Shown piece by piece: positions 3 through 63,474 of a stretch of DNA of 64,000 nucleotides; within the stretch, counting starts at the first letter, position 1; every line of letters begins with the position of its first letter. This DNA comes from an uncultured Actinomycetes bacterium (lineage in GTDB: Bacteria > Actinomycetota > Actinomycetes > UBA12327). The translations under genes and the position numbers were made by a program. The notes below the pieces were generated by a model, which made no database searches, had not been told where the DNA came from, and saw only the letters and a program-made list of their open reading frames with translations. The stretch lies in contig CAIXNN010000036.1 in assembly GCA_903920865.1 (NCBI GenBank), positions 27,165-91,164 of the forward strand, in the 5' to 3' direction.

Positions 3-2549
3 GTGCTCCTAGAGAACATGCTGCGCACCGAAGACGGGGCAAATGTCACCGCTGGCCACGTTCGCGCGTTGGCGTCCTGGGATCCAACGGCTGAGCCAGA
101 CACGGAAATTCAATTCAGTCCAGCTCGAGTGATCATGCAGGACTTCACCGGCGTTCCCTGTGTCGTTGACCTGGCCACGATGCGTGAGGCCGTGCGCGAC
201 CTTGGTGGCGACGAATCAAAGGTCAACCCGCTAGCGCCAGCAGAACTTGTCATTGACCACTCCGTGATCGCAGACCACTTTGGCACCCCTGAGGCTTTTG
301 GACTGAACGTTGCGTTGGAATATGAACGCAATCAAGAGCGCTACCAGTTCCTGCGCTGGGGACAAGGCGCCTTTGATGAATTCAAAGTTGTTCCTCCCGG
401 CACCGGGATCGTGCACCAGGTCAATATTGAATACCTTGCCCGCGTGGTGATGGTCCGCAATGGTCAGGCTTACCCCGATACGGTCGTGGGAACTGACTCG
501 CACACCACGATGGTCAATGGTTTGGGTGTGCTTGGTTGGGGAGTGGGTGGCATTGAAGCTGAAGCGGCGATGTTGGGCCAGCCCGTTTCAATGTTGATTC
601 CGCGCGTTGTTGGATTCAAACTCTTTGGTGAACTGCCAGCCGGCGCCACGGCTACCGACCTTGTGTTGACCATCACCGAGATGTTGCGTGCCCATGGCGT
701 GGTCGGAAAATTTGTCGAGTTCTATGGTCAAGGAGTTGGCGCGGTTCCGCTGGCAAACCGGGCCACCATTGGAAATATGAGCCCGGAGTTTGGCTCAACG
801 TGTGCAATCTTTCCCATCGATGGTGAGACCACCACCTACCTGCGTTTGACCGGCCGTACCGAGGAGCAGATCGCACTCGTTGAGGCTTACGCCAAGGCTC
901 AGGGCTTGTGGCACGACCCAGCCCACGAACCGACCTACTCGGAGTATCTCGAACTAGACCTATCGAGCGTCGTACCTTCCATTGCAGGGCCCAAGCGTCC
1001 GCAAGATCGCGTGAGTTTGTCTGCGTCCAAGGAAAAGTTTGCGGCTGCGCTCCCGACCTACACAACCGAACCCAACAAAACTGTTTCGGTGACTTACGCT
1101 GACCAAACATTTGACCTGCGTAGCGGGGCAGTAGTGATCGCTTCGATTACCTCATGCACCAACACGTCAAACCCATCCGTGATGCTCGGTGCAGCCCTGT
1201 TGGCCAAGAAGGCCGTCGAAGCGGGATTGGCCAGTAAGCCGTGGGTTAAGACCACCTTGGCGCCCGGTTCAAAGGTTGTTACCGACTACTACGAGCGTTC
1301 GGGCTTGCAGCCGTACATGAACAAGCTGGGTTTTGATCTGGTCGGTTATGGCTGCGTGACCTGCATCGGAAACAGTGGGCCATTGCCGGCTCCGATTTCG
1401 GCCGCGATCAACGAAGCAGACTTAGCAGCCGTGTCCGTGCTTTCAGGAAACCGCAACTTTGAAGGTCGGATCAACCCCGATGTGAAGATGAACTACCTGG
1501 CGTCGCCGCCGCTAGTCGTGGCTTATGCTTTGGCCGGAACGATGGACTTCGACTTTGACACTGATCCATTGGGTCAGCGTGAAGATGGCAGCGATGTGTT
1601 CCTGCGTGATATTTGGCCAACACCGAGCGAAATTGAAGCCACGATTGCGCAAGCCATTGGCTCTGATTTGTATCGAGACCGCTATGCGGATGTTTTCGCT
1701 GGCGATGCTCGTTGGCAGGGGCTTCAGACGCCCAAGGGAAACGTTTTCCAGTGGGATCCGAAGTCAACCTATGTTCGTAAGCCCCCATATTTTGACGATA
1801 TGCCCCGCACTCCTGCGCCGGTTGTTGATATTTCTAGTGCACGCGTGCTGGCCAAGTTGGGTGATTCGGTAACCACCGACCACATCTCCCCAGCAGGTTC
1901 AATTAAGGCCGATTCGCCTGCGGGTGCTTACTTGGCAGAGCACGGCGTTGATCGCAAGGACTTCAACTCCTATGGATCACGCCGCGGTAACCATGAGGTC
2001 ATGATTCGTGGCACCTTTGCCAACATCCGTTTGAAGAACCTCCTCCTTGACGGTGTTGAGGGTGGATTCACCGTTGACTTCCTGGATGCAGACAAACCAC
2101 AGACAACCATTTACGAAGCCGCTGAGAACTATCAAGCACACGGTGTGGACTTGGTGATTTTGGCGGGGAAGGAATACGGCTCCGGTTCTTCACGTGACTG
2201 GGCCGCCAAGGGCACCGCGCTGCTGGGTGTCAAAGTGGTCATCGCTGAGTCCTATGAGCGCATTCACCGCTCGAACCTGATCGGCATGGGTGTGCTGCCG
2301 TTGCAATTCCCGGCAGGACAGACCGCAGATTCCCTCGGACTTACCGGCGAAGAGTCGTTCACGATTAAGGGCGTTACAGCTCTCAATGATGGGGTTACGC
2401 CAAAGAGTGTGGACGTGGAAGCGATCAAGGAAAATGGCGATGTGACAGCCTTCAGCGCTCCGGTTCGCATTGATACCCCCGGTGAGGCGGACTACTACCG
2501 TCATGGGGGGATTATGCAGTTTGTCTTGCGAAGCCTGCTGGAGTCCTAA
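3..2549 (+). CDS. acnA: Aconitate hydratase A, 5' end cut by the window edge; the C-terminal 848 aa are present
   Basis: Long ORF in frame from the window start. Translation has aconitase family hallmarks ([21 protein letters not shown], swivel-domain C-terminus). Typical length is ~890-940 aa, so the N-terminus lies outside the window. Confidence 0.93.
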
Positions 2550-2671
2550 TTTAGGCTCAGATGTGCTCGCTTTAGGCACGAGATTGTGGTGCCGTTGGTT
2601 GAGCACACGCCTAGACTTAGGGCAGACCGCAGGCAGCTAGCGCAATAGTGATTCAGAAGGGGCTGGTGGGC

Positions 2672-4591
2672 ATGAGTTTGCTTGAGACCATCCGCAGTCC
2701 CCGTGATCTTCGTGATCTCAATGAGGACGAGTTGCGCCAACTCTCTCGTGAGATTCGTGCTTTTTTGGTTGATGCGGTCTCGGCTACCGGGGGACACCTG
2801 GGACCCAACCTTGGCGCGGTGGAATTAACCATCGCACTTCATCGAGTTTTCGAATCTCCAAATGATGCGATTATCTGGGACACCGGTCACCAAACCTATG
2901 TCCACAAGATGTTGACCGGACGTGCAAAAGACTTTGATCGATTGCGTGCCAAGGGTGGTTTAAGTGGTTACCCAAGTCGGGCTGAATCTGAGCATGACAT
3001 CGTCGAAAATTCGCATGCATCAACATCGCTGAGTTATGCCGATGGGCTGGCCAAAGCCTGGGAACTGCGCGGTGAATTGAGCAAGCGTCATGTGGTGGCC
3101 GTTATTGGTGATGGGGCATTGACCGGTGGAATGGCCTGGGAGGCGCTGAACAACATTGCTGGCGCCAAGCATCGTCCGCTCGTGATCGTGGTCAATGACA
3201 ACGAACGCTCCTACGCACCAACCATCGGCGGCCTGGCCGATCACTTGGCTGCATTGCGGACCACCAGCGGCTATGAACGATTCCTGGACTGGGGTCGGCA
3301 GCGACTTGAACGGGTTCCTATGGGCTCGCCCATCTACGAAACGTTGCATGGCATGAAGAAGGGCATCAAAGATGTCATCGCCCCGCAAGGCATGTTTGAG
3401 GACCTTGGTTTGAAGTACGTCGGACCCGTTGATGGTCATGACTTGCCCGCTCTTGAGCGCGCATTGAGTCGGGCTAAAGGATTCGATGGTCCGGTGATTG
3501 TGCATGCGATCACCACAAAGGGTTACGGGTATGCACCGGCGGAAAATGACGAAGCAGATCGATTCCATGGCATTGGTGTCATCGATCCAATGACGGGTCG
3601 CTCAACGGTGACCAGTGGACCAACGTGGACCGGTGCGTTCTCCGATGAGTTAGTGCGCATTGGTGACCAACGAGAAGATGTCGTAGCTATCACGGCGGCC
3701 ATGATGGCGCCTACGGGTTTGACAGACTTTGCGCAACGTTTTCCAAAGCGAGTTTTTGACGTCGGAATTGCTGAACAGCATGCTGTTACTTCGGCTGCTG
3801 GAATGGCTTTGGGTGGCCTACATCCCATTGTTGCCGTGTATGCAACCTTCCTTAATCGCGCGCTAGACCAGGTGTTGATGGATGCGGCCTTGCATTCGGC
3901 CGGCGTAACTTTTGTTTTGGATCGGGCCGGCATTACCGGTGATGACGGGGCAAGCCATAACGGCATGTGGGACATGTCGATGCTTCAAATGGTGCCGACC
4001 TTGCGCCTTGCAGCCCCACGAGATGGCGCAAGTTTGCGTCAGGAGCTTGGTGAGGCTCTCGATGTCGATGATGCGCCGACGGTTGTGCGCTTTCCCAAGG
4101 GTGCGTTGCCGGAGGATATTCCGGCCATCGCGCGGGAAGGTGAGGCCGATATTTTGCGTCGTGGCGAGAATGATCGGGTGCTCATCGTGGCCGTTGGCGG
4201 CTTAGTGGGCCTGGGCCTTGAAGTGGCGCACACCTTAGAACAGCAAGGAATTGGAGCCACCGTCGTGGACCCACGTTGGGTCAAGCCAGTGGATCCGGCT
4301 CTTGTGACCATGACGAAGAAGTATGAAGCCGTGATCACGATCGAAGATGGGGTTCGGGTCGGTGGTGTGGGGTCCACGATTGCGCAGGCTATGCGCGATG
4401 CGCAGATTACAACTCTGATCAATAACCACGGAATTCCGCTGGCTTTCCTTGATCAAGGTAAACGTGCTGAGATTCTTCTCGAATGTGGTTTGACTGCCGA
4501 ACACATTGCACAGTCGATCACCAAAACGCTGCTCTCAGATTCTGGGTTACCGATCCAAAAATCCACGAAGAGCGAATTCAACCAAGTTTGA
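2672..4591 (+). CDS. dxs: 1-deoxy-D-xylulose-5-phosphate synthase
   Basis: 639 aa from the ATG at 2672 (the ORF track begins at GTG 2648). The N-terminus [16 protein letters not shown]...[18 protein letters not shown] is the canonical DXS TPP-binding start. A purine-rich stretch precedes the ATG. Confidence 0.93.
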
Positions 4592-5386
4592 TCCATCCTT
4601 GGCCGGCCACACCCCATCGGCGGTGACCAAAACGGCTACCGAAAATCCTCGGTCCTGTGCTGTGGTGGCCGCGGCGGCGCCACGAGTAAAGGCTGAATCA
4701 AGGTGGTTGGGATCAACCCAGCCCCGCGTTCGCATCGGAACCGCTAGAGCTCGCATCCCCACCTCATGGTGGCTGGCCAAGGCCGTGCGGAAAGTCGTTG
4801 AGCCCAGCAAAGTGATCACATCGCACGAACCCATCGGGCGCAAGGTCTGGGACGGGTCACTCTTGTGGCGCTTCGAAGCCAACTGAGCCATCGTGTCCAA
4901 GTAGTCCAGAGCCGATTCCCAGCATCGCTGTGGATCAAGGTCCAGGATCTCCAACAGTCCGGCCGGGACCACCGTGGCCTGTCGTTGCAGGTGCAACTGT
5001 TCTTTGATGCCTAATCCACGATGGATTAGTTCACCCGGGACTACATCGCGCACCCATTCCTGGCCTGGGTGATTGTCACAGTCATGGGGAAGGGCAATGA
5101 CGCAAAACTGATCAAAGAAAGCAGAGCTTTCAAGAGTTACTGCGCTGTCACACAGATCCCGAGCCAACGTGAACCATTGAGTAAGTGCCGAGCGAGTAGC
5201 TGTATTTGTTGGATCGTCGGTTTCCCCAACGATGCCGGCCACGCGCTCCCAGGAAATGAAAATGTCTTTGCTTGCATTGGTTCCCGGTGTTGCCGGAAGA
5301 ACGACGCCACCTGCATGGGGCGTGAGATCAACGCCATCAAGGACGCAGACCATCAGGACGGCCTGGCGCAATTGGGTAGGGGTCAT
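4547..5386 (-). CDS. Hypothetical protein; true start uncertain, may be an internal Met
   Basis: The only protein-like ORF in the dxs-FTR1 gap. Composition is consistent with coding, unlike the Arg/Pro-rich shadow ORFs on the other strand. No motif I can assign. Its 3' end overlaps the dxs 3' end by 45 nt, convergently. Confidence 0.35.
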
Positions 5387-5455
5387 GTCAACACGGTAGC
5401 AAGGTGCAGCGCAGATTCTTACTCAACTGCTTGCGCCAAATTAGTGATTGACTCA

Positions 5456-6322
5456 TTAAGACTTCACTGCTTTGGGGGATTTAGCCGGCGAATCCGGCGA
5501 ATCTGACGCCTTCGACGACGACGCCGCTGACATTGGCCGGAAGTAGGCAAAGGTCACTGATGCAACAAAGCACACCCAGACCACGACTTGGAGGACGGTG
5601 GTCTTGGCGTTGAAGTTGATCGTGCCTTCAAGCAGAGCCCCGTACCAAGAATTCGGATTGATGGTCGAGCTGACATCGAACGCCAAATTTTCTGCGCCAG
5701 GCAGCCAGCCAATTTCTTGGAATTCGTGGACTGCGGCACTGAGCACTCCGGCTGCAACGATGATTAAGAATGCTCCAGTCCAGCGAAAGAATACGGAAAG
5801 GTTGATCTTTACCGTGCGCTTGTAGAGCAGGTAGCCAAGTACCACCGAAGTAGCAAGCCCAAGGGCTGCGCCAATGATGGGAATGGCGGTATCCCCGGTG
5901 GCTTTGATCGCCGACCAGATGAAGATGGCGGTTTCAAACCCTTCGCGGGCCACAGCGATAAAAGCAAGGGTGATCATCGCGGAGGTGCCGACCACGAGCG
6001 CTTCATCAACCTTTTCTCGAAGTTCACCGCTAATGGTTGCCGACACCTTCCGCATCCAAAAAATCATCCAGGTGACGCCGGCAACGGCGAGCAACGAAAC
6101 CGTGCCTGTGAAGGCTGGTTCGAACTTAGCGGGAAGGTTGGTTGACGTCAGATCGATCAGGGCTGCGAAGATCAAGCAGGCCACGATGGCCAAACTCACG
6201 CCGGTCCACACCGCTCGCACCTGTTCGCGGCGATCAATTTTGATCAGATGGGCGATCAAAATTGACACCACGATGGCCGCTTCGAGGCCTTCACGAAGCC
6301 CGATCACGAAGTTGCCCAGCAT
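5456..6322 (-). CDS. FTR1/EfeU-family high-affinity iron permease
   Basis: 288-aa polytopic membrane protein with two RExxE motifs (REGLEAA near the N-terminus, REGFETA mid-protein), diagnostic of the FTR1 iron permease family. No efeO/efeB partner genes are adjacent. Confidence 0.8.
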   Translation of the reverse strand: MLGNFVIGLREGLEAAIVVSILIAHLIKIDRREQVRAVWTGVSLAIVACLIFAALIDLTSTNLPAKFEPAFTGTVSLLAVAGVTWMIFWMRKVSATISGELREKVDEALVVGTSAMITLAFIAVAREGFETAIFIWSAIKATGDTAIPIIGAALGLATSVVLGYLLYKRTVKINLSVFFRWTGAFLIIVAAGVLSAAVHEFQEIGWLPGAENLAFDVSSTINPNSWYGALLEGTINFNAKTTVLQVVVWVCFVASVTFAYFRPMSAASSSKASDSPDSPAKSPKAVKS

Positions 6323-6351
6323 GTGTTCCGCCTATGGTTAAAACGCTCTAC

Positions 6352-6370
6352 TTAGGTAATCCTAAGTTTA
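6352..6370. promoter_or_regulatory. Candidate DtxR/IdeR-type iron box upstream of the FTR1 permease gene
   Basis: Sequence TTAGGTAATCCTAAGTTTA (local palindrome CTTAGGTAATCCTAAG) lies 30-48 nt upstream of the permease start codon. It matches about 14 of 19 positions of the consensus iron box TTAGGTTAGCCTAACCTAA, recalled from memory. Confidence 0.35.
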
Positions 6371-6372
6371 TG

Positions 6373-7680
6373 TCATTCAGGTGCGGATTGCCCATCTGGC
6401 TGGCTTGATGGGCTTGGTAGCGGCTGCGGTGCCTGTCCGGTCTGGCTGGCCGTGGCGATGGCGCTGCAGATGGCTTCCACGGTCAAGTTGCGCTGCCAGG
6501 GGCGGGCTCCCCAGGTGGTGAGAAATTCATCGGCTGCCTGGGCATCGGGGTTGTCATCGTTAGACCACGGGGGAGTCCAACAAAGCCGCCGCAGATAGTC
6601 AGGAGTGAGCAGATTTTCCACCGGAATGTTGTGCCGTTCACCAAGTTCTGTTACGACGTGGCGAGCGGCAGCCAATCGCAGCGCCGCTGACTTGTCGCGC
6701 TCAGGCCATGCGCGCGCAGGGGGCGGACTATCGGAAGGAACTGAGGGAGCCGGCCACTGTTGCGCTGAAAGTTGGAGGGCGGCGTTAACTGCGCCCAGCC
6801 ACTTGCGCGTATTGCGTTGCGCACCTTTGCCTTTAAATCCATCAAGCACGATCAGCTCGGCTTCGGTCTTGGGTGCGGCCAGAGCAGCCTCAACGATGGC
6901 GATGTCTTGCAGGATTCGCCCAGGAGCGATGTCTCGTTGTTGCGCAATCTCATCGCGGGTTTGCCAAAGCTGCCTAACGATGGCAAGTTGCTGGCTTTGA
7001 CGCACCCGATGAAGACCAGAGACTCGTCGCCAAGGATCAACTCGAGGTTCGGCTGGCGGGGCATTGACGATAGCTTCGAATTCTTCTTGCGCCCATTGGG
7101 TTTTCCCTTGATCTTCAAGGTCTTTGGCTAACGCATGGCGCAATTCGATAAGCACCTCAACATCGAGCACGGCGTAGCGCAACCACGGCGCCGGAAGCGG
7201 GCGGGTGGACCAGTCTGCGGCGCCGTGCCCCTTTTCAAGTCGAAGGCCTAAGACCTCCTCAACGAGTGGTCCGAGCCCAACTCTTGCCTTGCCGGCAATG
7301 CGGCCGGCAAGCTCGGTGTCGAATAAAGAGGTCGGACTCATGTCAAGTTCACGCAGGCAGGGAAGATCTTGCGAAGCTGCATGCAAAATCCACTCGGTTC
7401 CTTCAAGTGCGTCATGGACCGAGCGAAGGTGATCGAGATTGATCGGGTCGATCAGGAAACTTCCGGCACCTTCGCGCTTAAGTTGCACCAGGTAGGCGCG
7501 TTGCCCGTAGCGATAACCAGACGCCCGCTCGGCGTCAATGGCAACCGGACCGGTCCCGCCGGCAAGCGCGCGGGCTGCTGCCTCAATTTCTGATGCATTT
7601 GAGAGAACCAGTGGCACCCCGCCGGCTGGTTCGAGCAAAGCAAGCTCAACAGCTGCTGGTACGGGCTGAACTTCGGTCAT
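6373..7680 (-). CDS. rnd: Ribonuclease D-like 3'-5' exonuclease with HRDC domain
   Basis: 435 aa. The N-terminal DEDDy-type exonuclease region (AIDAERASGYRYGQRAYLVQL) is followed by an HRDC-like helical region. Its position next to dxs matches the Rv2681/Rv2682c arrangement. Confidence 0.8.
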   Translation of the reverse strand: MTEVQPVPAAVELALLEPAGGVPLVLSNASEIEAAARALAGGTGPVAIDAERASGYRYGQRAYLVQLKREGAGSFLIDPINLDHLRSVHDALEGTEWILHAASQDLPCLRELDMSPTSLFDTELAGRIAGKARVGLGPLVEEVLGLRLEKGHGAADWSTRPLPAPWLRYAVLDVEVLIELRHALAKDLEDQGKTQWAQEEFEAIVNAPPAEPRVDPWRRVSGLHRVRQSQQLAIVRQLWQTRDEIAQQRDIAPGRILQDIAIVEAALAAPKTEAELIVLDGFKGKGAQRNTRKWLGAVNAALQLSAQQWPAPSVPSDSPPPARAWPERDKSAALRLAAARHVVTELGERHNIPVENLLTPDYLRRLCWTPPWSNDDNPDAQAADEFLTTWGARPWQRNLTVEAICSAIATASQTGQAPQPLPSPSSQPDGQSAPE

Positions 7681-7785: not shown

Positions 7786-8418
7786 TTAGGTGATTAAGCC
7801 GGCTCGAAGAGCCAGGACCACCATCTCGGCGCGGTCTCCAGTTCCAAGCTTGCGGGCAATGCGCGCAAGGTGACTTTTAACCGTCAATGCTGACAGACCC
7901 AAGGCTTGTGCGACGTCGCGATTTCCTTGACCTTCTGCCACAAGATGTAGAACTTCAATTTCTCGATCTGAGAGTCCATCGGGTCCGATCGGATCACTGG
8001 TTTGGGGAGTGATGATGGTGACGTTGCCCGATAGTGGACGCGCTTGAATGCGTTCTGGATGGGTCACAACGTAACCGTGGATGCCAGCAGCTAAGGCAGT
8101 GCGCACCGAGGATGCGTCATCACTTGGCCCTAGAACAACCCCGCGCTGCCAGCCAGCTCGTCGAAGTTCGGTGACCAGTGCCACTCCACTTCCATCGATC
8201 AACGTGCTATCTGCAATGACTAAATCACCTGGATCAATGGTCAAAGATTGGGAACGAGCTCCGGCCAGGCTTGTGGTTTCAAAGATTTCTCGGGCCCCAA
8301 GGGAGTGCAACCGACGAACCAGCGCACCACGAACGGCAGGGCGACTAACTGCAACAAGGGCAGTAAATTGGCCCGCACGATTGACCGGGATCAGAGGGCG
8401 CTCCGACAGGGCGGTCAT
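7786..8418 (-). CDS. LuxR-family transcriptional regulator (GerE-type HTH, receiver-like N-terminus)
   Basis: C-terminal LSDREIEVLHLVAEGQGNRDVAQALGLSALTVKSHLARIARKLG is a classic LuxR/GerE HTH. The N-terminal ~120 aa are receiver-like, but I could not confirm a phospho-acceptor Asp. Confidence 0.75.
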   Translation of the reverse strand: MTALSERPLIPVNRAGQFTALVAVSRPAVRGALVRRLHSLGAREIFETTSLAGARSQSLTIDPGDLVIADSTLIDGSGVALVTELRRAGWQRGVVLGPSDDASSVRTALAAGIHGYVVTHPERIQARPLSGNVTIITPQTSDPIGPDGLSDREIEVLHLVAEGQGNRDVAQALGLSALTVKSHLARIARKLGTGDRAEMVVLALRAGLIT

Positions 8419-11190: not shown

Positions 11191-11931
11191 CTAGCTGAGC
11201 AAATACCGGACCATAACAGTGTCGGCGTCAGCAAGTACATGGCTGATCTCAAAGGTTGATTCTAGGTCCTGGCCGCTGATCAGCGACGGCGAGATGCTGC
11301 CGACCAAGGTGGGGCTCAGGGTGAGGCAGAGTTCATCAAGGACCTGCTGCTTGAGGCACTGGGCCAACAATTGGGCACCGCCTTCAGTCAAGATCTGGTT
11401 CAATCCCCGCTCACGTAATAGGTCGACCACCTGATGTAGGGAAATTTCCTGACCGGGTAGCTGGATCACTTCAACGCGTTGACTCAGAGCCTGGACAGCA
11501 TTGCGATCAGCGGTGGAGTCGGTGATGACGATGGTGGGGGACTGGATTGCCAGGATGTTCTGCTCGAACGCGCAGGAATGAGAAACGACCACAAGAACAG
11601 GCGGGTTCTCTCGGCCTTGTTCGGCTCGCATGTGCGCGAAGCGTTCATCAACAACCGGTAGCCGGTAGTTCTCGGCGCGCACCGTTCCAGCGCCGACAAC
11701 GATGGCATCACTGAGGCTTCTTAAAAGGTGGAAGATGGTCCGATCGCTTGTCGTAGACAAACTGGCTGAAAGTCCATCGGCTCCGCTGACCTTTCCATCA
11801 AGTGAGGTCACAAGGTTGGCACGCACGCAAGGCACGGTTTCGTCCACTGCGTACAGCCGCACTAGATCCTCAAGGGTCAGCTCAAGTGGAGAATCAATAG
11901 CGGTGGTTTCAGGCGCGGTGAGCAAATACAC
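11191..11931 (-). CDS. RibD C-terminal-domain / dihydrofolate-reductase-like reductase
   Basis: 246 aa. LVTSLDGKVSG...DRTIFHLLRSLSDAIVVGAGTVRAENY...LTEGGAQLL matches the RibD_C/DHFR-like fold signature. Confidence 0.7.
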   Translation of the reverse strand: MYLLTAPETTAIDSPLELTLEDLVRLYAVDETVPCVRANLVTSLDGKVSGADGLSASLSTTSDRTIFHLLRSLSDAIVVGAGTVRAENYRLPVVDERFAHMRAEQGRENPPVLVVVSHSCAFEQNILAIQSPTIVITDSTADRNAVQALSQRVEVIQLPGQEISLHQVVDLLRERGLNQILTEGGAQLLAQCLKQQVLDELCLTLSPTLVGSISPSLISGQDLESTFEISHVLADADTVMVRYLLS

Positions 11932-11985
11932 GGATACACCTTGACATAGCAGCCATTGGACTTCTCGCTCGCGTAGAGTTGGGCC

Positions 11986-12450
11986 ATGGTCTTGTTCACT
12001 GATCGGTTAGCGCCATCACTTGTGGTGATCGGGCTGGTGTTGACCTTGGCTGGTTGCGGTCAGGCTCAGATGGTTGTCGATCAAGCCGGTGCAGTGGCTA
12101 AGAAGGCCGCTGAGACGGCCACCAAAGATGCGGCCACGGCAGCGGTCTCAACTGCGGCTACATCGGCCCTGACGAGCGCGGGAATTTCCCTAGTTTCATC
12201 CCCAGACTGCAAGAGCAAGTTTTCGCTCAATGCAGCTGCCGTTACTGCCACCGGGGATGTGACCTGCGTGGGACGAACGACCGAAAGTAAGGCGGTGCGC
12301 ATTACTTTTACCGGGACCCTTTCGACCAGTGCATGTGAGGGACCGTTAACGATCGTGGTTGAAGATCGCGCCCCCATTGTCGTCAAGACCCTTAAGAATT
12401 GTTCAATCAAGCAACTTGTTGGTGGCTCATCGCAAGGATCACAGTCCTGA
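11986..12450 (+). CDS. Putative lipoprotein
   Basis: Signal peptide with lipobox LTLAGC, an Ala/Thr-rich linker and 4 further Cys. No family assigned. Confidence 0.5.
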   Translation: MVLFTDRLAPSLVVIGLVLTLAGCGQAQMVVDQAGAVAKKAAETATKDAATAAVSTAATSALTSAGISLVSSPDCKSKFSLNAAAVTATGDVTCVGRTTESKAVRITFTGTLSTSACEGPLTIVVEDRAPIVVKTLKNCSIKQLVGGSSQGSQS

Positions 12451-15141: not shown

Positions 15142-15276
15142 AGAAACTCCTGTGCTGTCGGACCCTTGTTCTATAGTTGCAAACAGGTTATGAGTGAGCG
15201 TCGCATGTGGCCCCTTGGCCTTGTCGCTTCAGCAACCGCGCTTTCCCGCGCACGGTGCTTCCAAGGGTTAAACCGG

Positions 15277-15302
15277 CCGGGGAAGCCAATTGGCTTCCCC
15301 GG
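15277..15302. promoter_or_regulatory. Perfect 26-bp palindrome CCGGGGAAGCCAATTGGCTTCCCCGG; a second hairpin follows at 15309-15330
   Basis: Reverse complement is identical to the forward sequence. It lies 48 nt upstream of the phosphatase ATG and 135 nt downstream of the preceding stop. The next hairpin is GGGTTTTCTGCTGTGAAAACCC. Confidence 0.5.
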
Positions 15303-15350
15303 AAGCGCGGGTTTTCTGCTGTGAAAACCCTGATCGAAAGTTGATTTGTT

Positions 15351-16671: not shown

Positions 16672-16749
16672 TGGTGGGCGATACAGGACTTGAACCTGTG
16701 ACCTCTTCCGTGTCAGGGAAGCGCGCTAGCCAGACTGCGCCAATCGCCC
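16672..16749 (-). tRNA. tRNA-Val (anticodon GAC), CCA encoded
   Basis: Cloverleaf read by hand: acceptor GGGCGAU/AUCGCCC, anticodon stem-loop CUUCC-CUGACAC-GGAAG, T-arm GGUUCAAGUCC, discriminator A plus CCA. Confidence 0.85.
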
Positions 16750-16750
16750 G

Positions 16751-16821
16751 AGGTGGAGACGGGATTTGAACCCGTGTAGACGGCTTTGCAGGCCGTTGCC
16801 TCGCCTCTCGGCCACTCCACC
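16751..16821 (-). tRNA. tRNA-Cys (anticodon GCA)
   Basis: Acceptor GGUGGAG/CUCCACC, anticodon loop CUGCAAA, T-loop GGUUCAAAUCC, discriminator U. No encoded CCA. Confidence 0.85.
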
Positions 16822-16848
16822 GCAGAATAAGCCCGAAGGCTTCATCCG

Positions 16849-16921
16849 AGCGGACGACGGGATTCGAACCCGCGACCCTCACCTTGGCAAGGTGATGCTC
16901 TACCAACTGAGCCACGTCCGC
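16849..16921 (-). tRNA. tRNA-Gly (anticodon GCC)
   Basis: Acceptor GCGGACG/CGUCCGC, D-arm GCUCAGUUGGUAGAGC, anticodon loop UUGCCAA, T-loop GGUUCGAAUCC. The spurious ORF 16394-16915 runs through the cluster. Confidence 0.85.
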
Positions 16922-19908: not shown

Positions 19909-19983
19909 GGGCGATTGGCGCAGTGGTAGCGCGCTTCGTTCACACCGAAGAGGTCACTGGTTCGAACCCAGTATCGCCCACCA
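19909..19983 (+). tRNA. tRNA-Val (anticodon CAC), CCA encoded
   Basis: Acceptor GGGCGAU/AUCGCCC, anticodon loop UUCACAC, T-loop GGUUCGAACCC, ACCA 3' end. The spurious ORF 19923-20156 covers it. Confidence 0.85.
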
Positions 19984-58116: not shown

Positions 58117-58137
58117 TGCCCTATTTAAGGGCATTTT
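58117..58137 (+). terminator. Hairpin TGCCCT-ATTTA-AGGGCA followed by T-runs, downstream of aroE
   Basis: 6-bp stem, 5-nt loop, then TTTTGTGCCTTTTTGTGCC. Candidate intrinsic terminator separating the housekeeping operon from the pilus genes. Confidence 0.4.
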
Positions 58138-58154
58138 GTGCCTTTTTGTGCCTG
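58134..58154 (+). promoter_or_regulatory. Two overlapping copies of TTTTGTGCCT(G) upstream of pilB; a third copy lies upstream of the pilin gene at 62767-62777
   Basis: The 11-mer TTTTGTGCCTG occurs at 58144-58154 and 62767-62777, with TTTTGTGCCT at 58134-58143. Reading by eye I saw no other copy in the window. Confidence 0.4.
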
Positions 58155-58203
58155 AGCCTTCAGATTTTCACCCATCTGCCGATAACTGACCTGTGGATCA
58201 TTC

Positions 58204-59931
58204 GTGTCCGCCTGTTCAACAACGGTTGATCAGTTCGTGCGCCGGCAGGGAGTTGAGTCCGTGAAGCAATTGGGCGACATCTTGCTTGAGGATGGCCTGA
58301 TCACCAATGAGCAACTATCGGTTGCCGTTGATCAACATCAAAACCTTGGCCGAAGTTTGGGCCGAGTGTTGGTGGATCAGGGAATTTTGTCCGAAACCCA
58401 ACTTGTGGCAGCGCTGGCTCAGCAAATCGGATTGCGCTTTATCGACCTGAGTGATTACCCGGTGGACGGTTCTGCGCTAGCCCGAATTCCCGGTTCCGTA
58501 TGCCGCCAGCACATGGCGATCCCGATTGGCTTTGAAGACGGTCGCATTGTGGTGGCCATGTCAGACCCCGCAAACGTCTTCGCGGCTGATGACATTCGCA
58601 CCATCAGCGGATACGAAGTCATTCCAGCCGTTGCCACTCGAGCCGATGTTTCGGCAGCTATTGACCGTTATTACCGCGCTGATTCCGACCTTGATGACTT
58701 GACCACTGCCCTTGAAGATGCTGACGATGGTGGGGGAGATGACCTAGCTGGACTCAAAGAGGTCGTTGAAGATGCTCCCATCGTTAAATTTGTGAATCTG
58801 CTTATTACTCAAGCTATTCAGGACCGAGCCTCGGACATCCACCTCGAGCCCACCGAGTCCGATTTGCGCGTGCGATACCGCATTGACGGGGTTTTGCACG
58901 AGATTATGCGCTCACCTAAGTCCATTCAGTCCGGCGTTATCTCGCGTTTGAAGATCATGGCTGACATCAACATTGCTGAACGTCGAATCCCGCAGGATGG
59001 TCGTTTGTCTGTGTCTGCCCACGGCAAGAAGGTGGACCTGCGTGTTGCCACCTTGCCCACCGTGTGGGGCGAGAAGGTCGTCATGCGAATTTTGGATAAC
59101 TCCACCGCCCGTCTTGATCTTGCAGACTTGGGATTCACCTCGGCCAACTACGAGCGCTACAGCGAAAGTTTTGGCAAGCCCTACGGAATGATCCTGGTTA
59201 CTGGACCCACTGGTTCTGGTAAGTCGACCACGTTGTACTCAACGTTAAATATCTTGAACCGCCCTGAGGTCAACATCATCACCGTTGAAGACCCCGTCGA
59301 ATATCGCTTGCCTGGTATCAATCAGATTCAAACCAATGTCAAAGCAGGCTTGACCTTTGCGGCGTCCTTGCGCTCGATCCTTCGATCCGACCCAGACATC
59401 GTCCTCATCGGAGAAATCCGTGACCACGAAACGGCTCAGATCGCAGTTGAGGCCGCCCTGACCGGTCACCTCGTCCTATCAACCCTGCACACAAACGACG
59501 CTCCATCGGCCATAACTCGACTGACAGAGATGGGTATTGAGCCATTCCTGGTCGGTTCAGCCGTGGACGCGGTCTTGGCCCAGCGGCTAGCTCGTCGGTT
59601 GTGCGTCAAATGCAAAGAGGCTTACCTGCCAACGGATGAAACCTTGACCGCAGCCCGAGTTAACTGGGATCTGGCTGCCGGGATGCCCACGCTTTACCGA
59701 CCAATTGGCTGCCCATCCTGCTCAGGCACTGGGTACAAGGGTCGATTGGCGCTGCATGAAGTGATGATGGTCAACGAGGAAATTGAGCGTTTAGCGGTTG
59801 AACACGCGCCCGCCACTGAGATCACTGCGGCTGCTTTGCGGTCAGGGATGGTCACGCTTCGCAATGACGGTTTGAACAAGGTTCTTCAAGGTGTGACCTC
59901 TATTGATGAGATTTTGCGAGTGGTGGTCTAG
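58204..59931 (+). CDS. pilB: Type IV pilus assembly ATPase PilB / GspE family
   Basis: GTG start at 58204 (an alternative GTG at 58261 has a GGGAG RBS). N-terminal GSPII_E N-domain, Walker A GPTGSGKST, Asp/His boxes and the tetracysteine CVKC...CPSC motif. Confidence 0.85.
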   Translation: MSACSTTVDQFVRRQGVESVKQLGDILLEDGLITNEQLSVAVDQHQNLGRSLGRVLVDQGILSETQLVAALAQQIGLRFIDLSDYPVDGSALARIPGSVCRQHMAIPIGFEDGRIVVAMSDPANVFAADDIRTISGYEVIPAVATRADVSAAIDRYYRADSDLDDLTTALEDADDGGGDDLAGLKEVVEDAPIVKFVNLLITQAIQDRASDIHLEPTESDLRVRYRIDGVLHEIMRSPKSIQSGVISRLKIMADINIAERRIPQDGRLSVSAHGKKVDLRVATLPTVWGEKVVMRILDNSTARLDLADLGFTSANYERYSESFGKPYGMILVTGPTGSGKSTTLYSTLNILNRPEVNIITVEDPVEYRLPGINQIQTNVKAGLTFAASLRSILRSDPDIVLIGEIRDHETAQIAVEAALTGHLVLSTLHTNDAPSAITRLTEMGIEPFLVGSAVDAVLAQRLARRLCVKCKEAYLPTDETLTAARVNWDLAAGMPTLYRPIGCPSCSGTGYKGRLALHEVMMVNEEIERLAVEHAPATEITAAALRSGMVTLRNDGLNKVLQGVTSIDEILRVVV

Positions 59932-60007
59932 ATGACCTTAAGAAACCATTTTCGCAGGCCGATACTTTCAACCGTATGCATCGTTAAGTGCGCACTAGGA
60001 GGTAGCA

Positions 60008-61426
60008 GTGGAGATTAGCGGGTTTGTACCACCTGACACTGACACTGACACTGATACTGACACCCAAGCTTGGGCTGCGCCTACTGATGACTTTTTCGCA
60101 GGTGCACCGATAGCTCATGATCGTTTCGCTCCAGCCAGCGCTGGTGCGCCGGCCGCTTCCCTTGCTCCTGTTGTCACGCCAGCGATGGTTACGCACGTTG
60201 CTCCTGCGCCGCAGACGGCGCCTGAGATTCCCCTGGTGGAACCAGAACTGCCTAAGCCGCCGGTTGCGCTCGAGCCGGCCCCGGCCGATCAGGTCAGCGT
60301 TGAGCCCACCTTTAGCGAGGAATACCGCCGTGCCACGACCGAAAAGGAAGCGGCTGAAGAAGATCTGAATCTTCAAGACCTGCTCGTTGAAGTCTTAACT
60401 GCAGGCGCTTCAGACCTGCACCTGACCATTGGGTCTCGCCCTGTTGTTCGCCTACGCGGAGACCTGGTCCCGTTGGAGCACTACCCGGTGTTGTCCGCAG
60501 CCGTTATCCAGCGCGTTATGTATGCCGCCATCACTCAGCGTCAGCGCGAAAAATTTGAGCGCGAGCTTGAATTGGACTTTGCCTACTCGGTTCCTGGGCG
60601 CGCTCGATTCAGGGTGAACCTGTACCGCCAACGTGATGCGCTCGGTGCCGCCTTCCGATTGATCCCTTTTGAGATCAAGTCCCTTGAAACCTTAGGTGTG
60701 CCGGCAGCGGTTTCTAACTTTGCGATGCTGCCTCGGGGGTTCGTTTTGGTCACCGGACCAACGGGTTCGGGCAAATCAACAACCTTGGCTGCCTTGATCG
60801 ACTTGGCCAATCGGAACCGACGCGACCACATTTTGACCGTTGAGGACCCGATTGAATTCCTCCACGGACACCAGAACAGCATCGTGAATCAACGTGAAGT
60901 TGGCGAAGACACTCACAGTTTCACCGATGCCCTCAAGCACGCCTTGCGCCAAGACCCCGACATCATCATGGTCGGCGAAATGCGTGACCTTGAGACGATC
61001 TCCGTGGCCTTGACCGCTGCCGAGACCGGCCACTTGGTCTTTGCCACTTTGCACACCCAAGATGCGGCCCAGACCATCGACCGTGTCATCGACGTTTTCC
61101 CACCGCACCAGCAGCAACAGGTGCGGGTCCAGCTCGCTGGCGCCCTCCAGGGCGTGGTCTGCCAGAACTTGGCTAAAACCAAGGACGGCGAAGGCCGAGT
61201 AGCCGCGACGGAAGTTTTAGTGGCCACCCCCGCGATCAGGAACTCGATTCGTGAAGGAAAGACCCACCAGATCTATTCGGCGATGCAAGCTGGTGCCCAA
61301 TATGGCATGCACACGATGGATCAACACCTCGCCGAGTTAGTCAATAACGGACAGGTCGCGTATTCAGTCGGACTTGAAAAGTGTCACCACGTCGATGACT
61401 TCAACCGTTTGACCGGACGCGGGTGA
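60008..61426 (+). CDS. pilT: Twitching-motility (retraction) ATPase PilT with ~120-aa low-complexity N-terminal extension
   Basis: GTG 60008 lies 6 nt downstream of AGGAGG. The PilT core runs from DLLVEVLTAGASDLHLTIGSRP (Walker A GPTGSGKST, AIRNSIREGKTHQI). The preceding ~120 aa are Pro/Ala-rich with PPDTDTDTDTDTQ. Confidence 0.85.
   Translation: MEISGFVPPDTDTDTDTDTQAWAAPTDDFFAGAPIAHDRFAPASAGAPAASLAPVVTPAMVTHVAPAPQTAPEIPLVEPELPKPPVALEPAPADQVSVEPTFSEEYRRATTEKEAAEEDLNLQDLLVEVLTAGASDLHLTIGSRPVVRLRGDLVPLEHYPVLSAAVIQRVMYAAITQRQREKFERELELDFAYSVPGRARFRVNLYRQRDALGAAFRLIPFEIKSLETLGVPAAVSNFAMLPRGFVLVTGPTGSGKSTTLAALIDLANRNRRDHILTVEDPIEFLHGHQNSIVNQREVGEDTHSFTDALKHALRQDPDIIMVGEMRDLETISVALTAAETGHLVFATLHTQDAAQTIDRVIDVFPPHQQQQVRVQLAGALQGVVCQNLAKTKDGEGRVAATEVLVATPAIRNSIREGKTHQIYSAMQAGAQYGMHTMDQHLAELVNNGQVAYSVGLEKCHHVDDFNRLTGRG
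60035..60064 (+). repeat. Hexanucleotide tandem repeat (GACACT)x5, in-frame in pilT, encoding (DT)5
   Basis: The units read GACACT GACACT GACACT GATACT GACACC. In-frame, so copy-number change would alter repeat length without a frameshift. Confidence 0.8.
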
Positions 61427-62655
61427 TTGTGATGTCAACTGTTACCACTTTTCAATATTCGGTACGTGACCGATCCGGCAAACTAGTTCAGGGACAAATT
61501 GACGCCGATTCGCCCACGGCCGTTGCGACCAAGTTGAAGTCCATGGGCTATGCACCCTTGAGCATTACCGCCTTTAACCCGGGTATGAAGCGTGAACTCT
61601 CGCTGCCGAAGTTGGGTTCAAAGGTCAAGCTCAAAGACTTGGCGATCATGTCTCGTCAGTTCGCCACCATGATCAATGCCGGACTTTCTTTGCTACGTGC
61701 GCTGGTGATCTTGTCTCAGCAAACTGAGAACAAGGAGCTGGCAAAGGTGCTGACCAGTATCAGCTCGGATGTCGAAGAAGGACACTCGCTGTCGGCCTCC
61801 TTGGCCAAGCACCCACGGATCTTCCCGCCGCTGATGGTCAACATGTGCCGGGCCGGTGAGGTCGGTGGATTCCTGGATTCAGTGCTGCTCCAGATCGCTG
61901 AGAACTACGAAGCAGAGGTCAAACTTAAGGGCAAAATCAAGTCCGCGATGACCTATCCGGTGGTTGTTTTTGTGATGGCCATGCTTGCCGTGGTGGGAAT
62001 GCTCCTGTTTATCGTGCCCGTGTTTGCCAAGATGTTTACCTCCCTGGGTGGCGAACTGCCTGCTCCCACGAAAGTTCTGATTTTCCTTTCTACGGTCTTG
62101 AAGTACGGCACGCCGTTTTTCATTGTCTTCGGCGTTGCAGGTTTTGTTGTGTGGAATCGGGTCAAGCACACCGAGCAGGTACGCGGTTTCATTGATCCGC
62201 TGAAGCTGCGCATTCCTGTCTTTGGCGATCTATTCGCCAAGATCGCCTTAAGTAGATTTGCTCGAAACTTGGGGACCATGATGAGTTCAGGTGTTCCCAT
62301 TTTGCAGTCGCTGGACATCGTGGCCGAAACCACCGGGAACTCCGTTGTGGGTAAAGCCGTATTAGAGGTTCAAGAGTCGGTTCGTCAAGGTGAGTCCATG
62401 ACTGCGCCGCTGTCTCGGCACCCGGTGTTCCCACCGATGCTGGTGCAGATGATGGCCGTGGGTGAAGACACTGGAGCCCTTGACGTGATGCTGCACAAGA
62501 TCTCGGAGTTCTACGATCAAGAGGTCGAAGCCACCACTGAATCCCTCACAGCGCTGATTGAGCCGCTCATGATCGGATTCCTCGGTGGCATCGTGGGGGC
62601 CATGATCATCGCCCTGTACATGCCGATCTTTAAGATCTTCGATCTCATCAAATAG
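61423..62655 (+). CDS. pilC: Type IV pilus inner-membrane platform protein PilC / GspF family
   Basis: 410 aa. Two GspF repeats, each followed by TM helices. 4-nt overlap with pilT. Confidence 0.85.
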   Translation: MIVMSTVTTFQYSVRDRSGKLVQGQIDADSPTAVATKLKSMGYAPLSITAFNPGMKRELSLPKLGSKVKLKDLAIMSRQFATMINAGLSLLRALVILSQQTENKELAKVLTSISSDVEEGHSLSASLAKHPRIFPPLMVNMCRAGEVGGFLDSVLLQIAENYEAEVKLKGKIKSAMTYPVVVFVMAMLAVVGMLLFIVPVFAKMFTSLGGELPAPTKVLIFLSTVLKYGTPFFIVFGVAGFVVWNRVKHTEQVRGFIDPLKLRIPVFGDLFAKIALSRFARNLGTMMSSGVPILQSLDIVAETTGNSVVGKAVLEVQESVRQGESMTAPLSRHPVFPPMLVQMMAVGEDTGALDVMLHKISEFYDQEVEATTESLTALIEPLMIGFLGGIVGAMIIALYMPIFKIFDLIK

Positions 62656-62693
62656 GACAAAACGGACATCAGCAGTCCTTGACCCGAGGGTCC

Positions 62694-62737
62694 GGACCGA
62701 TTTTGGACCGATTGTGGATCGATTTGGGACCGATTTT
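62694..62737. repeat. Four tandem 11-bp direct repeats: GGACCGATTTT, GGACCGATTGT, GGATCGATTTG, GGACCGATTTT
   Basis: Read directly in the pilC-pilin intergenic region. The 11-bp phase is about one helical turn. Related half-copies (CCCGATTTTCG, GGATCGGGAAAATTTC) follow at 62783-62825, with A-tracts. Confidence 0.6.
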
Positions 62738-63048
62738 GACCAATTTAAGGCCGGCTTCGTGGCCACTTTTGTGCCTGCAGGGCCCGATTTTCGTGCCTAG
62801 CGGCTCGGATCGGGAAAATTTCTCAAAAAACTTGTGAAAAAGCACTCAAGGTTTTCACCCAACTGGGCGAAGTAATACCTGTCAGTGAGCTACCCGGCCA
62901 GAAAGGGCACACCCACCGAGAGGTGGGGTCGCAAAGCCAGGGGACCGCACCCGCGGTCAGCCCAGCTACCTCGGTTGGTACTTCGAAAGAAGCACCGGTG
63001 GGGACCAGAAGCCGAAGCTCTAGGTTCACCCAGAAAGGGACCATCCCG

Positions 63049-63474
63049 ATGCTCGCTCGCATCCGCAAGTCCATGGAGGAGAAGGACCAGGGCTTTACCC
63101 TGATCGAGCTCCTGGTGGTCATCATCATCATTGGCATCCTTGCCGCTATCGCAATTCCCGTCTTCCTCAATCAGCGCAAGAAGGCAACTGAAGCATCAAT
63201 GAAGGCAGACCTTCGTTCAGTTGCTAATGAGATGGAGACCTACTTCGTCGATAACCAGGCATATCCAGTTCCTGCTCAAGCAGCTGCAGGTGCCTCAGTC
63301 ACAGTGGGTACAACCACTGTCAAGGTGTCTTCACCTAACACCGTCGTCGCAAATCAGACCGGCACTGGCGTCGTCGCCGGTACCTACTGCCTCAAGGCCA
63401 CCAACAGTGGAGCCAGCGGTACGTGGTACTACGACAGCGACGGTGGAGGAATTAACAACACCGGTTGCGTCTGA
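63049..63474 (+). CDS. Type IV pilin (prepilin with class III signal peptide), probable major pilin
   Basis: The ORF is open from 62923; the start is taken at ATG 63049 after AAAGGGA. Leader MLARIRKSMEEKDQG, then FTLIELLVVIIIIGILAAIAIP (G-1/F+1/E+5). Cys pair in GTYCL...NTGCV. C-terminus TWYYDSDGGG. Confidence 0.8.
   Translation: MLARIRKSMEEKDQGFTLIELLVVIIIIGILAAIAIPVFLNQRKKATEASMKADLRSVANEMETYFVDNQAYPVPAQAAAGASVTVGTTTVKVSSPNTVVANQTGTGVVAGTYCLKATNSGASGTWYYDSDGGGINNTGCV

Follow-up and report, generated by a model that had tools for sequence, protein, structure and literature searches.

We investigated a 64-kb window (the whole stretch of DNA analysed, 64,000 nucleotides of contig CAIXNN010000036.1) from an uncultured freshwater actinobacterium, whose closest named relative is the metagenome-assembled genome (MAG) acAMD-2, with a focus on its type IV pilus genes and on a 10-mer, TTTTGTGCCT, that recurs in their upstream regions. 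The pilus cluster lies between aroE and aroC. On the forward strand of the window it comprises pilB (58261-59931), which starts with GTG and encodes a T2SSE ATPase with an MshEN domain, pilT (60008-61426; T2SSE), pilC (61423-62655; T2SSF), and pilA1 (63049-63474; N_methyl), which encodes the major type IV pilin. A sequence-only reading of this DNA had placed the pilB start at 58204, but relatives align from the residue encoded by the GTG at 58261. In the same-species contig L161, which has an identical PilC and shows the full cluster, the gene order is aroE, pilB, pilT, pilC, pilA1, pilA2, three minor-pilin-like genes, pilD, then pilM, pilN, pilO and one more gene, and aroC.

Alignment of the pilB upstream regions of 60 relatives yielded a bipartite pattern of the sigma-28/WhiG type, (C/G)T(C/T)A(A/G)G, 14 to 15 nucleotides (nt), and (G/C)CCGA(T/A)N. 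The strict form of this pattern was found in 27 of 61 pilB upstream regions and in 33 of 65 pilC-pilin spacers, against a background of 0.11 per kb (∼0.03 per region). Three such promoters lie in the pilus cluster of the window, all on the forward strand. That of pilB (58159-58185) consists of TTCAG (58159-58163), a 14-nt spacer and GCCGATAA (58178-58185), with TTCAG and TGCCGATAACT invariant in the clade; that of pilT (59937-59965) reads CTTAAG-N15-GCCGATAC and is kept as CTTAAG-N15-GCCGATAG in L163-L174 (L numbers denote loci of relatives); and that of pilA1 (62845-62873), conserved in relatives, joins CTCAAG (62845-62850) through N15 to GGCGAAGT (62866-62873). Over the full cluster in L161 the number is five, with TTAAG-N15-GACGAAGA in front of the minor-pilin operon (L161:12742-12777) and TTAAG-N15-GCCGAAAA in front of pilM (L161:17422-17450; conserved in relatives), both beyond the end of the window. 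The distances from the end of the -10 element to the start codon were 75 nt for pilB, 42 for pilT, 175 for pilA1, 7 for the minor pilin, and 64 for pilM, all within 200 bp. With its ATG 7 nt after the -10 element, the minor-pilin operon is apparently leaderless; we note that the pilB start of L169 and L170 likewise lies 7 to 8 nt after the -10 element. Transcription start sites ∼7 nt after the -10 elements would fall near 58193 (pilB) and 62881 (pilA1), and the positions given below for the 10-mer rest on these values.

WhiG control of pilus genes in Actinomycetota has already been published (PMC8325347, PMC13595943). One study described a WhiG -35 element of TAAA and a -10 element of GCCGATAA, classically arranged as TAAA-N15-GCCGATAA, mapped such promoters inside the Rubrobacter pilus cluster and tolerated two -35 mismatches (PMC8325347). 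The other used an actinobacterial consensus with a -35 element of XT(C/A)AX, a -10 element of GCCGA, a spacer of 16 and one mismatch in -10 positions 1 and 2, and predicted that WhiG targets pilus genes in five families, among which Cellulomonadaceae, Sanguibacteraceae, Jonesiaceae, and Cryptosporangiaceae are named (PMC13595943). Compared with these definitions, the -35 elements of pilB (TTCAG) and of pilA1 and a regulator gene described below (both CTCAA(G)) match XT(C/A)AX or TAAA, and those of pilT and pilM are readable as TTAAG, or as CTTAA with T at position 3. The -10 element of pilB is the perfect octamer, that of pilA1 has one mismatch, and those of pilT, pilM, and the minor-pilin operon also keep the fixed CGA with at most one mismatch in positions 1 and 2. 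The spacer is exact for pilA1 and the regulator gene (CTCAA-N16), and the pilT, pilM, and minor-pilin promoters fit the geometry; the pilB spacer, taken as TTCAG-N14, is 2 nt below the setting of PMC13595943 and, taken as TTCA-N15-GCCGATAA, has the classical spacing with two -35 mismatches. At orthologous positions the cores are invariant in the clade. A crude motif scan of the 64-kb window detected no sigma factor. We also observed a TTTT directly after the -35 element in all relatives, as in the Escherichia coli sigma-28 consensus, TAAAGTTT.

The core promoters probably belong, as new members, to the known WhiG-dependent pilus promoters. As in Rubrobacter and the other published cases, several matching promoters per pilus cluster direct pilB, the pilins and pilM, with the same match to XT(C/A)AX and GCCGA(TAA), a link to cyclic di-GMP (c-di-GMP), and a WhiI/BldM-like response regulator behind a promoter of this kind. 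In contrast to those cases, the present ones come from an uncultured freshwater lineage outside those studies and were assigned to their putative sigma factor from promoter sequence, have a -35 element of CT(C/T)AAG, are joined at pilA1 by a c-di-GMP-I riboswitch, and have the conserved 10-mer upstream of the cores, nothing similar to which is described in PMC8325347 or PMC13595943. Taken together, these data suggest that the pilus operons are linked mainly by sigma-28/WhiG-type core promoters, which are located 25 to 80 bp downstream of the 10-mer and are kept in many actinobacterial families. The sequence-only reading had proposed the shared word as a cis-element, an activator site or promoter element, coordinating a pilB-pilT-pilC operon with the pilin operon. 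An element specific to pilus promoters is upheld by its conservation in the sister lineage, as set out below, whereas the part of the main coordinating or promoter signal would be played by the WhiG-type cores. Moreover, pilB, pilT, and pilC probably do not form one simple operon, because pilT has a WhiG-type promoter of its own.

The 175-nt pilA1 leader contains a c-di-GMP-I aptamer (RF01051; 62896-62973, forward strand) that scored 55.5 bits against a gathering score of 35 and is conserved, nearly invariantly, in relatives. Of the 65 pilin leaders from relatives, 20 contained the core of this standard c-di-GMP-I aptamer, in each case 56 to 58 nt after the WhiG-type -10 element. A c-di-GMP-sensing leader also precedes the major pilin gene pilA1 of Clostridioides difficile, where the riboswitch is of class II (PMC6916266, PMC11477304); here, in contrast, it is of class I, occurs in Actinomycetota and is joined with a WhiG-type promoter, a pairing on an actinobacterial pilin that our literature search did not find elsewhere. 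Since CCAGAAAGGG is located both at the 5′ flank of the aptamer (62898-62907) and at the pilA1 ribosome-binding site (63030-63039), one complementary strand could pair with either copy, which would suit a translational switch. A possible third c-di-GMP input is the MshEN domain of PilB (PF05157, 2.4e-23; 58261-58700), which contains two LGxxLLxxGLI-like N-terminal repeats and belongs to a family known from c-di-GMP-binding MshE ATPases.

Exact copies of TTTTGTGCCT were counted on both strands of the 64 kb. Three were found (58134, 58144, and 62767) compared to 0.16 expected, and none of 100 shuffles reached three, which confirms the shared word that the sequence-only reading had pointed out. 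All are on the forward strand. Relative to the presumed pilB start site, unit 1 (58134-58143) covers about -59 to -50 and unit 2 (58144-58154, including a G at 58154) about -49 to -39, ending 5 nt before the -35 element. The copy upstream of pilA1, TTTTGTGCCTG (62767-62777), lies at about -114 to -104, in a 34-bp segment present in the source lineage only. It is followed by an ancestral copy with one inserted C, TTTTCGTGCCTAGC (62788-62801; about -93 to -80), which aligns with GATTTTGTGCCTAGC, invariant in 12 distinct sister sequences; the variant site noticed earlier, TTTTCGTGCCT, is indeed present, but at 62788-62798 and not at 62783-62797. The distances of the 10-mer to the -35 elements are thus 25 and 15 nt at pilB and ∼58 and 79 nt at pilA1. 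The consensus of the 10-mer is (A/T)TTTGTGCCT(A/G)(A/G) with the core GTGCCT(AG), and no dyad symmetry, CRP-like or other, was evident by eye around it.

These statistics from within the window are suggestive, and the evidence from related genomes carries the weight. When one mismatch was allowed, the 11-mer gave the same three sites against 1.77 expected, which alone is not significant; the tandem duplication accounts for two of the three exact copies and leaves two independent loci; and the longest word common to the pilB and pilA1 spacers, 11 nt, is a modest excess over the shuffle maximum of 10. A weight-matrix scan of the 64 kb found no further good copy, the next best sites scoring at most 12.7 bits and lying inside open reading frames. 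The matrix was partly derived from the window's own copies, and the scan therefore shows only that extra copies are lacking. We had considered CGTGCCTTAGC upstream of the source pilM as a fourth site and dropped it, as it is not conserved in the sister group.

The related set comprised 160 loci (1.75 Mb), and further clade members were fetched via the protein collection; a scan of metagenomes contributed just two more close relatives. Within the set, the exact 10-mer was confined to the five closest relatives (∼91% PilC identity) and was always located in promoter regions of the pilus cluster, at the pilA1 position in L001, L002, L003, and L081 and at the pilB position in L003, with a reversed copy in the minor-pilin promoter of L081; the ∼150 other related loci contained no copy. 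With one mismatch allowed, clade members carry the word upstream of pilB and upstream of pilA1, both on the forward strand, and, in the sister group only, at a third place, where reversed CTCAAGnnTnAGGCACAAAATGACGACAA lies inside the spacer of the minor-pilin promoter. The word is accordingly recurrent at two promoters in the source and at three in sister genomes, and rare elsewhere. Fourfold degenerate sites of pilB are saturated between the source and the sister group, with 65 to 70% of them different, and differ by 13 to 33% within the sister group. Across the saturated divergence, GTGCCTAGC at pilA1 is identical between the two lineages, and TTTTGTGCCTAGC is invariant in the 12 distinct sister sequences while both of its flanks vary, so that the 10-mer shows above-neutral conservation between variable flanks.

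The copies have shifted between adjacent positions. At pilB, both units are perfect in the source, the first in L003 and L167, and the second in L163-L177. The source, L003, and L167 share the same unit 1 (conserved as TTTTTGTGCCT), which is degenerate in L163-L177 (TTTTGGGCGT or TTTTGGGCAT); unit 2 is near-perfect in L163-L177 (ATTTGTGCCT) and degenerate in L003 and L167 (AGTTCCGCCT or AGTTACGCCT), with GCCTGAG invariant. At pilA1, the source has the 1-nt C insertion in its ancestral copy and a new perfect copy 21 bp upstream, within the 34-bp insertion. Every clade genome retains at least one good copy despite these shifts, and the persistence of one or more perfect copies while their positions change points to sequence-specific selection on a cis-element specific to pilus promoter regions. 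At 85 to 86% PilC identity (L082, L168, L169, and L170) and in all more distant relatives, the 10-mer was absent. In those four loci the WhiG cores and the riboswitch are retained, and looser T-tract units, e.g., GATTTGCCCCCTTTTTGGGC and TTTTGCCCTAA, take the place of the 10-mer; in more distant genomes no word common to both promoters rose above the shuffle null. Because it is missing from orthologous promoters at 85 to 86% PilC identity and beyond, the 10-mer is, as judged by comparison of these sequences, a narrow-clade accessory upstream element; it corresponds to no described element. The sequence-only reading had held that absence from orthologous pilus promoters would speak against a shared element, and the outcome is divided, with the word present in the sister lineage but absent at 85 to 86% PilC identity.

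We consider it possible, at a probability of roughly 0.4, that the 10-mer, set in bent DNA, forms the core of a site recognized by a DNA-binding protein. It would lie at the junction where one transcription unit stops and the following one has its sigma-28/WhiG-type promoter. The WhiG-type cores would coordinate pilB, pilT, pilA1, the minor pilins, and pilM, with the c-di-GMP-I riboswitch added at pilA1, and the GTGCCT(AG) core would be the site of a protein that tunes the output of these promoters. This recognition core would be embedded in helically phased, DNA-bending T-tracts, and its T-run would probably also serve as the U-tail of the upstream terminator. A protein recognition site is favored because structure alone fails on the conserved GTGCCT(AG), on its re-creation next door and on the reversed copy in the sister spacer.

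Several observations weigh against this reading. The 10-mer is not palindromic, and GerE-type regulators, the family of the candidate binder described below, usually bind inverted repeats; the naming of that binder is itself a guess. Neither position nor orientation relative to the promoter is consistent (15, 25, ∼58, and 79 nt from the -35 element, and reversed in the sister spacer), and the sites therefore do not all conform to one simple geometry of activation or repression; the reversed copy inside the sister promoter spacer would suit repression. The source genome has only a degenerate form of the third site (CGGCCAAAAA), lineages at 85 to 86% PilC identity dispense with the element, and at pilA1 the entire stretch from the ancestral copy to the -35 element is fairly conserved, which makes the 10-mer the edge of a larger block and not an isolated island. 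The remaining points concern DNA shape and terminators. In both upstream regions the T-runs recur in phase with the helix, with R values of 0.95 (at 11.0 bp) and 0.94 (at 10.5 bp), and the curvature predicted by a wedge model reaches its window maximum at 62824 and the 99.8th percentile at 58137. A hairpin ended at most 3 nt from the T-run at 12 of 15 motif sites, compared to 33% of 314 control TTTT runs, although these sites are phylogenetically related and the enrichment is overstated. Distant lineages have a strong pilC terminator 45 to 75 nt before the pilin -35 element, and in L004 the terminator tail, TTTGTGACG, starts 58 nt before CTCAAG, compared to 57 nt for the 10-mer. From the hairpin positions, the phasing, the curvature, and the distance of the L004 tail, the 10-mer plausibly sits at terminator/promoter junctions, with its T-run doubling as terminator tail and bending unit.

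The observations on DNA shape and terminators would support a reading to which we give somewhat less credence than to protein recognition, namely that only structure matters, the T-run being the U-tail of the aroE or pilC terminator and at the same time a phased bending unit (UP-like, or a target for wrapping or for a nucleoid protein), with GTGCCT read by no dedicated factor. Variation of the hairpin stems by lineage and the looser T-tract units in relatives at 85% identity would also fit it, as would the location of the pilB units at -59 to -39, an UP-element position. UP elements, which work by Ross et al. in 1993 and by Estrem et al. in 1998 is said to have placed upstream of strong promoters, have the consensus AAAWWTWTTTTNNNAAANNN and an upstream limit of -60. 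The likeness to UP elements and phased curved DNA extends to T/A-tracts at -40 to -60 of pilB, A-tracts at the same place at pilA1, helical phasing, and high predicted curvature. However, half of the bases of the 10-mer are G or C, its GTGCCT core is conserved, and its sequence does not match the A/T-rich consensus; only at pilB does its position between -40 and -60 agree, the pilA1 copies at about -93 and -114 lying past the -60 limit. Structure alone also leaves unexplained the exact conservation of GTGCCT(AGC) over saturated divergence and the re-creation of GTGCC in a neighboring unit, and the copy that is reversed within the minor-pilin spacer can count neither as upstream DNA nor as the tail of a terminator. 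The pilB-upstream hairpin, TGCCCT-ATTTA-AGGGCA (58117-58133, forward strand; ΔG, -16.3 kcal/mol), is a putative aroE terminator stem that ends 0 nt before the T-run and is matched by 1% of shuffles, but it is absent in L003 and weak in L165 and L167.

That the 10-mer has no function of its own, its copies having arisen by local slippage, duplication, or gene conversion among T-rich promoters and been kept by chance or hitchhiking, we regard as improbable. The perfect tandem at pilB, the location of the 62767 copy within a lineage-specific 34-bp insertion, the modest statistics within the window, and the strain-to-strain variation in copy number of a neighboring 11-bp array are what such a history would leave behind. 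A second word, TTTTCACCCA, is likewise exact in both promoter spacers, of pilB (58165-58174) and of pilA1 (62852-62861), in the source lineage only. Against such a history, the 10-mer is kept at the same positions in two lineages with saturated synonymous divergence, where chance retention of a 9- to 10-mer would be ∼1e-5 per site at a neutral identity of 0.3 to 0.35, and the word is invariant in the 12 distinct sequences with variable flanks and persists in at least one perfect copy through turnover. More improbable by far is that the 10-mer is the -35 element of a second promoter or a DNA uptake sequence recognized by the pilus. TTGTGC resembles TTGACA, but scans found no sigma-70-type promoter in either region and no conserved -10 element 16 to 18 nt downstream, and we rejected it as a sigma-70-type -35 element. 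Although the pilin has a sub-threshold ComP_DUS match (26.0 bits against a cutoff of 27.3), uptake sequences are overrepresented genome-wide, whereas the 10-mer has only three copies in 64 kb, all in pilus spacers, and none in more than 150 other loci; an uptake sequence was thus likewise dropped. A conserved RNA structure holding the 10-mer was also rejected, the pilB hairpin (z = -3.5) not being conserved in L003 and other folds being no better than shuffles.

If the 10-mer is a protein recognition core, a plausible binder would be the product of a gene at 7786-8418 on the reverse strand, a lead only, which encodes an atypical orphan response regulator of the NarL/LuxR family. The protein has a GerE/LuxR helix-turn-helix (2e-17) and a receiver under the Pfam cutoff, in which the phospho-acceptor Asp is retained and the acidic pair, the conserved Thr and the Lys are replaced; no kinase gene is adjacent. 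The gene has its own WhiG-type promoter, CTCAAG-N15-GCCGATAC (8502-8474, reverse strand), 56 nt before the ATG. This promoter and the likeness to WhiI/BldM alone tie the protein to the 10-mer, and its binding there would be a guess. Regulators of the WhiI/BldM class are frequent WhiG targets (PMC13595943). With the 7786-8418 regulator, the arrangement would be a feed-forward loop like that from WhiG to WhiI/BldM in Streptomyces, where an atypical orphan NarL-family regulator behind a WhiG-type promoter could similarly coregulate other targets. Al-Bassam et al. in 2014 are said to have described such feed-forward control, to which PMC13595943 also refers. The BldM box is a 16-bp palindrome; the 10-mer, in contrast, is not palindromic and has no resemblance to it, and binding here would be conjecture. 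In Proteobacteria, PilR sites lie upstream of sigma-54 pilA promoters, and the 10-mer shares with them the arrangement of short repeated sites ∼50 to 120 bp upstream of an alternative-sigma pilin promoter. It differs in that the promoters are of the sigma-28 type with no sigma-54 signature, the cluster has no PilS/PilR pair, and the sequence is unrelated. The full proposal, in which the 10-mer would be the operator of an undescribed pilus-specific regulator in freshwater Actinomycetota, possibly the 7786-8418 protein, atop WhiG promoters, the riboswitch, and an MshEN-type PilB, is in our view tentative and rather doubtful.

That WhiG controls type IV pili in Actinomycetota has become known only recently and from a few cultured genera, and this is extended here to an uncultured freshwater lineage. 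The whole pilus cluster appears to be wired through several WhiG-type promoters, and with a riboswitch on the major pilin and MshEN on PilB, it could respond to c-di-GMP at up to three levels. The 10-mer, which is clearly selected for, would be a clade-specific added layer and, being short and shifting between neighboring positions, a compact test case for the evolution of accessory sites on alternative-sigma promoters. If the operator reading is true, abundant uncultured lake bacteria would have a multilayer feed-forward c-di-GMP circuit for type IV pili; if the 10-mer amounts to no more than the tail of a terminator in bent DNA, the architecture would be that of ordinary promoters.

Two further features lie upstream of pilA1 on the forward strand. 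A tandem array of the 11-bp unit GGACCGATTTT (62694-62746; 4.9 copies, with phased T-tracts) varies in copy number and unit order among the window, L161, and L162, which have identical PilC, and every unit moves the pilA1 promoter away from the DNA upstream by roughly one more turn of the helix. A conserved A-tract region, GAAAATTT..CAAAAAAC..GAAAAAG (62813-62843), lies where an UP element of the pilA1 promoter would be placed.

In pilT, the GTG start at 60008 is preceded by a strong AGGAGG site that is kept in relatives, and (CTGACA)x5 at 60033-60063 encodes TDTDTDTDTD in a low-complexity N-terminal extension of ∼100 residues. Among the relatives, the locus of the 86% PilC lineage, L168, encodes Roadblock/LC7, PatA_N, small GTPase, and Wzy_C proteins between aroE and pilB (1456-6652) and an ECF-like sigma factor after pilC (11484-12443), with the pilin genes 5 kb further. 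A record titled as a Bifidobacterium breve MAG (L002, CALQPL010000171.1) has 91% PilC identity to the freshwater clade and the same promoter and riboswitch, and is probably mis-binned or mislabelled. Features elsewhere in the window that have no bearing on the 10-mer are a SAM-IV riboswitch, scoring 55.5 bits, and four tRNA genes (15186-15313, 16675-16921, and 19909-19980).

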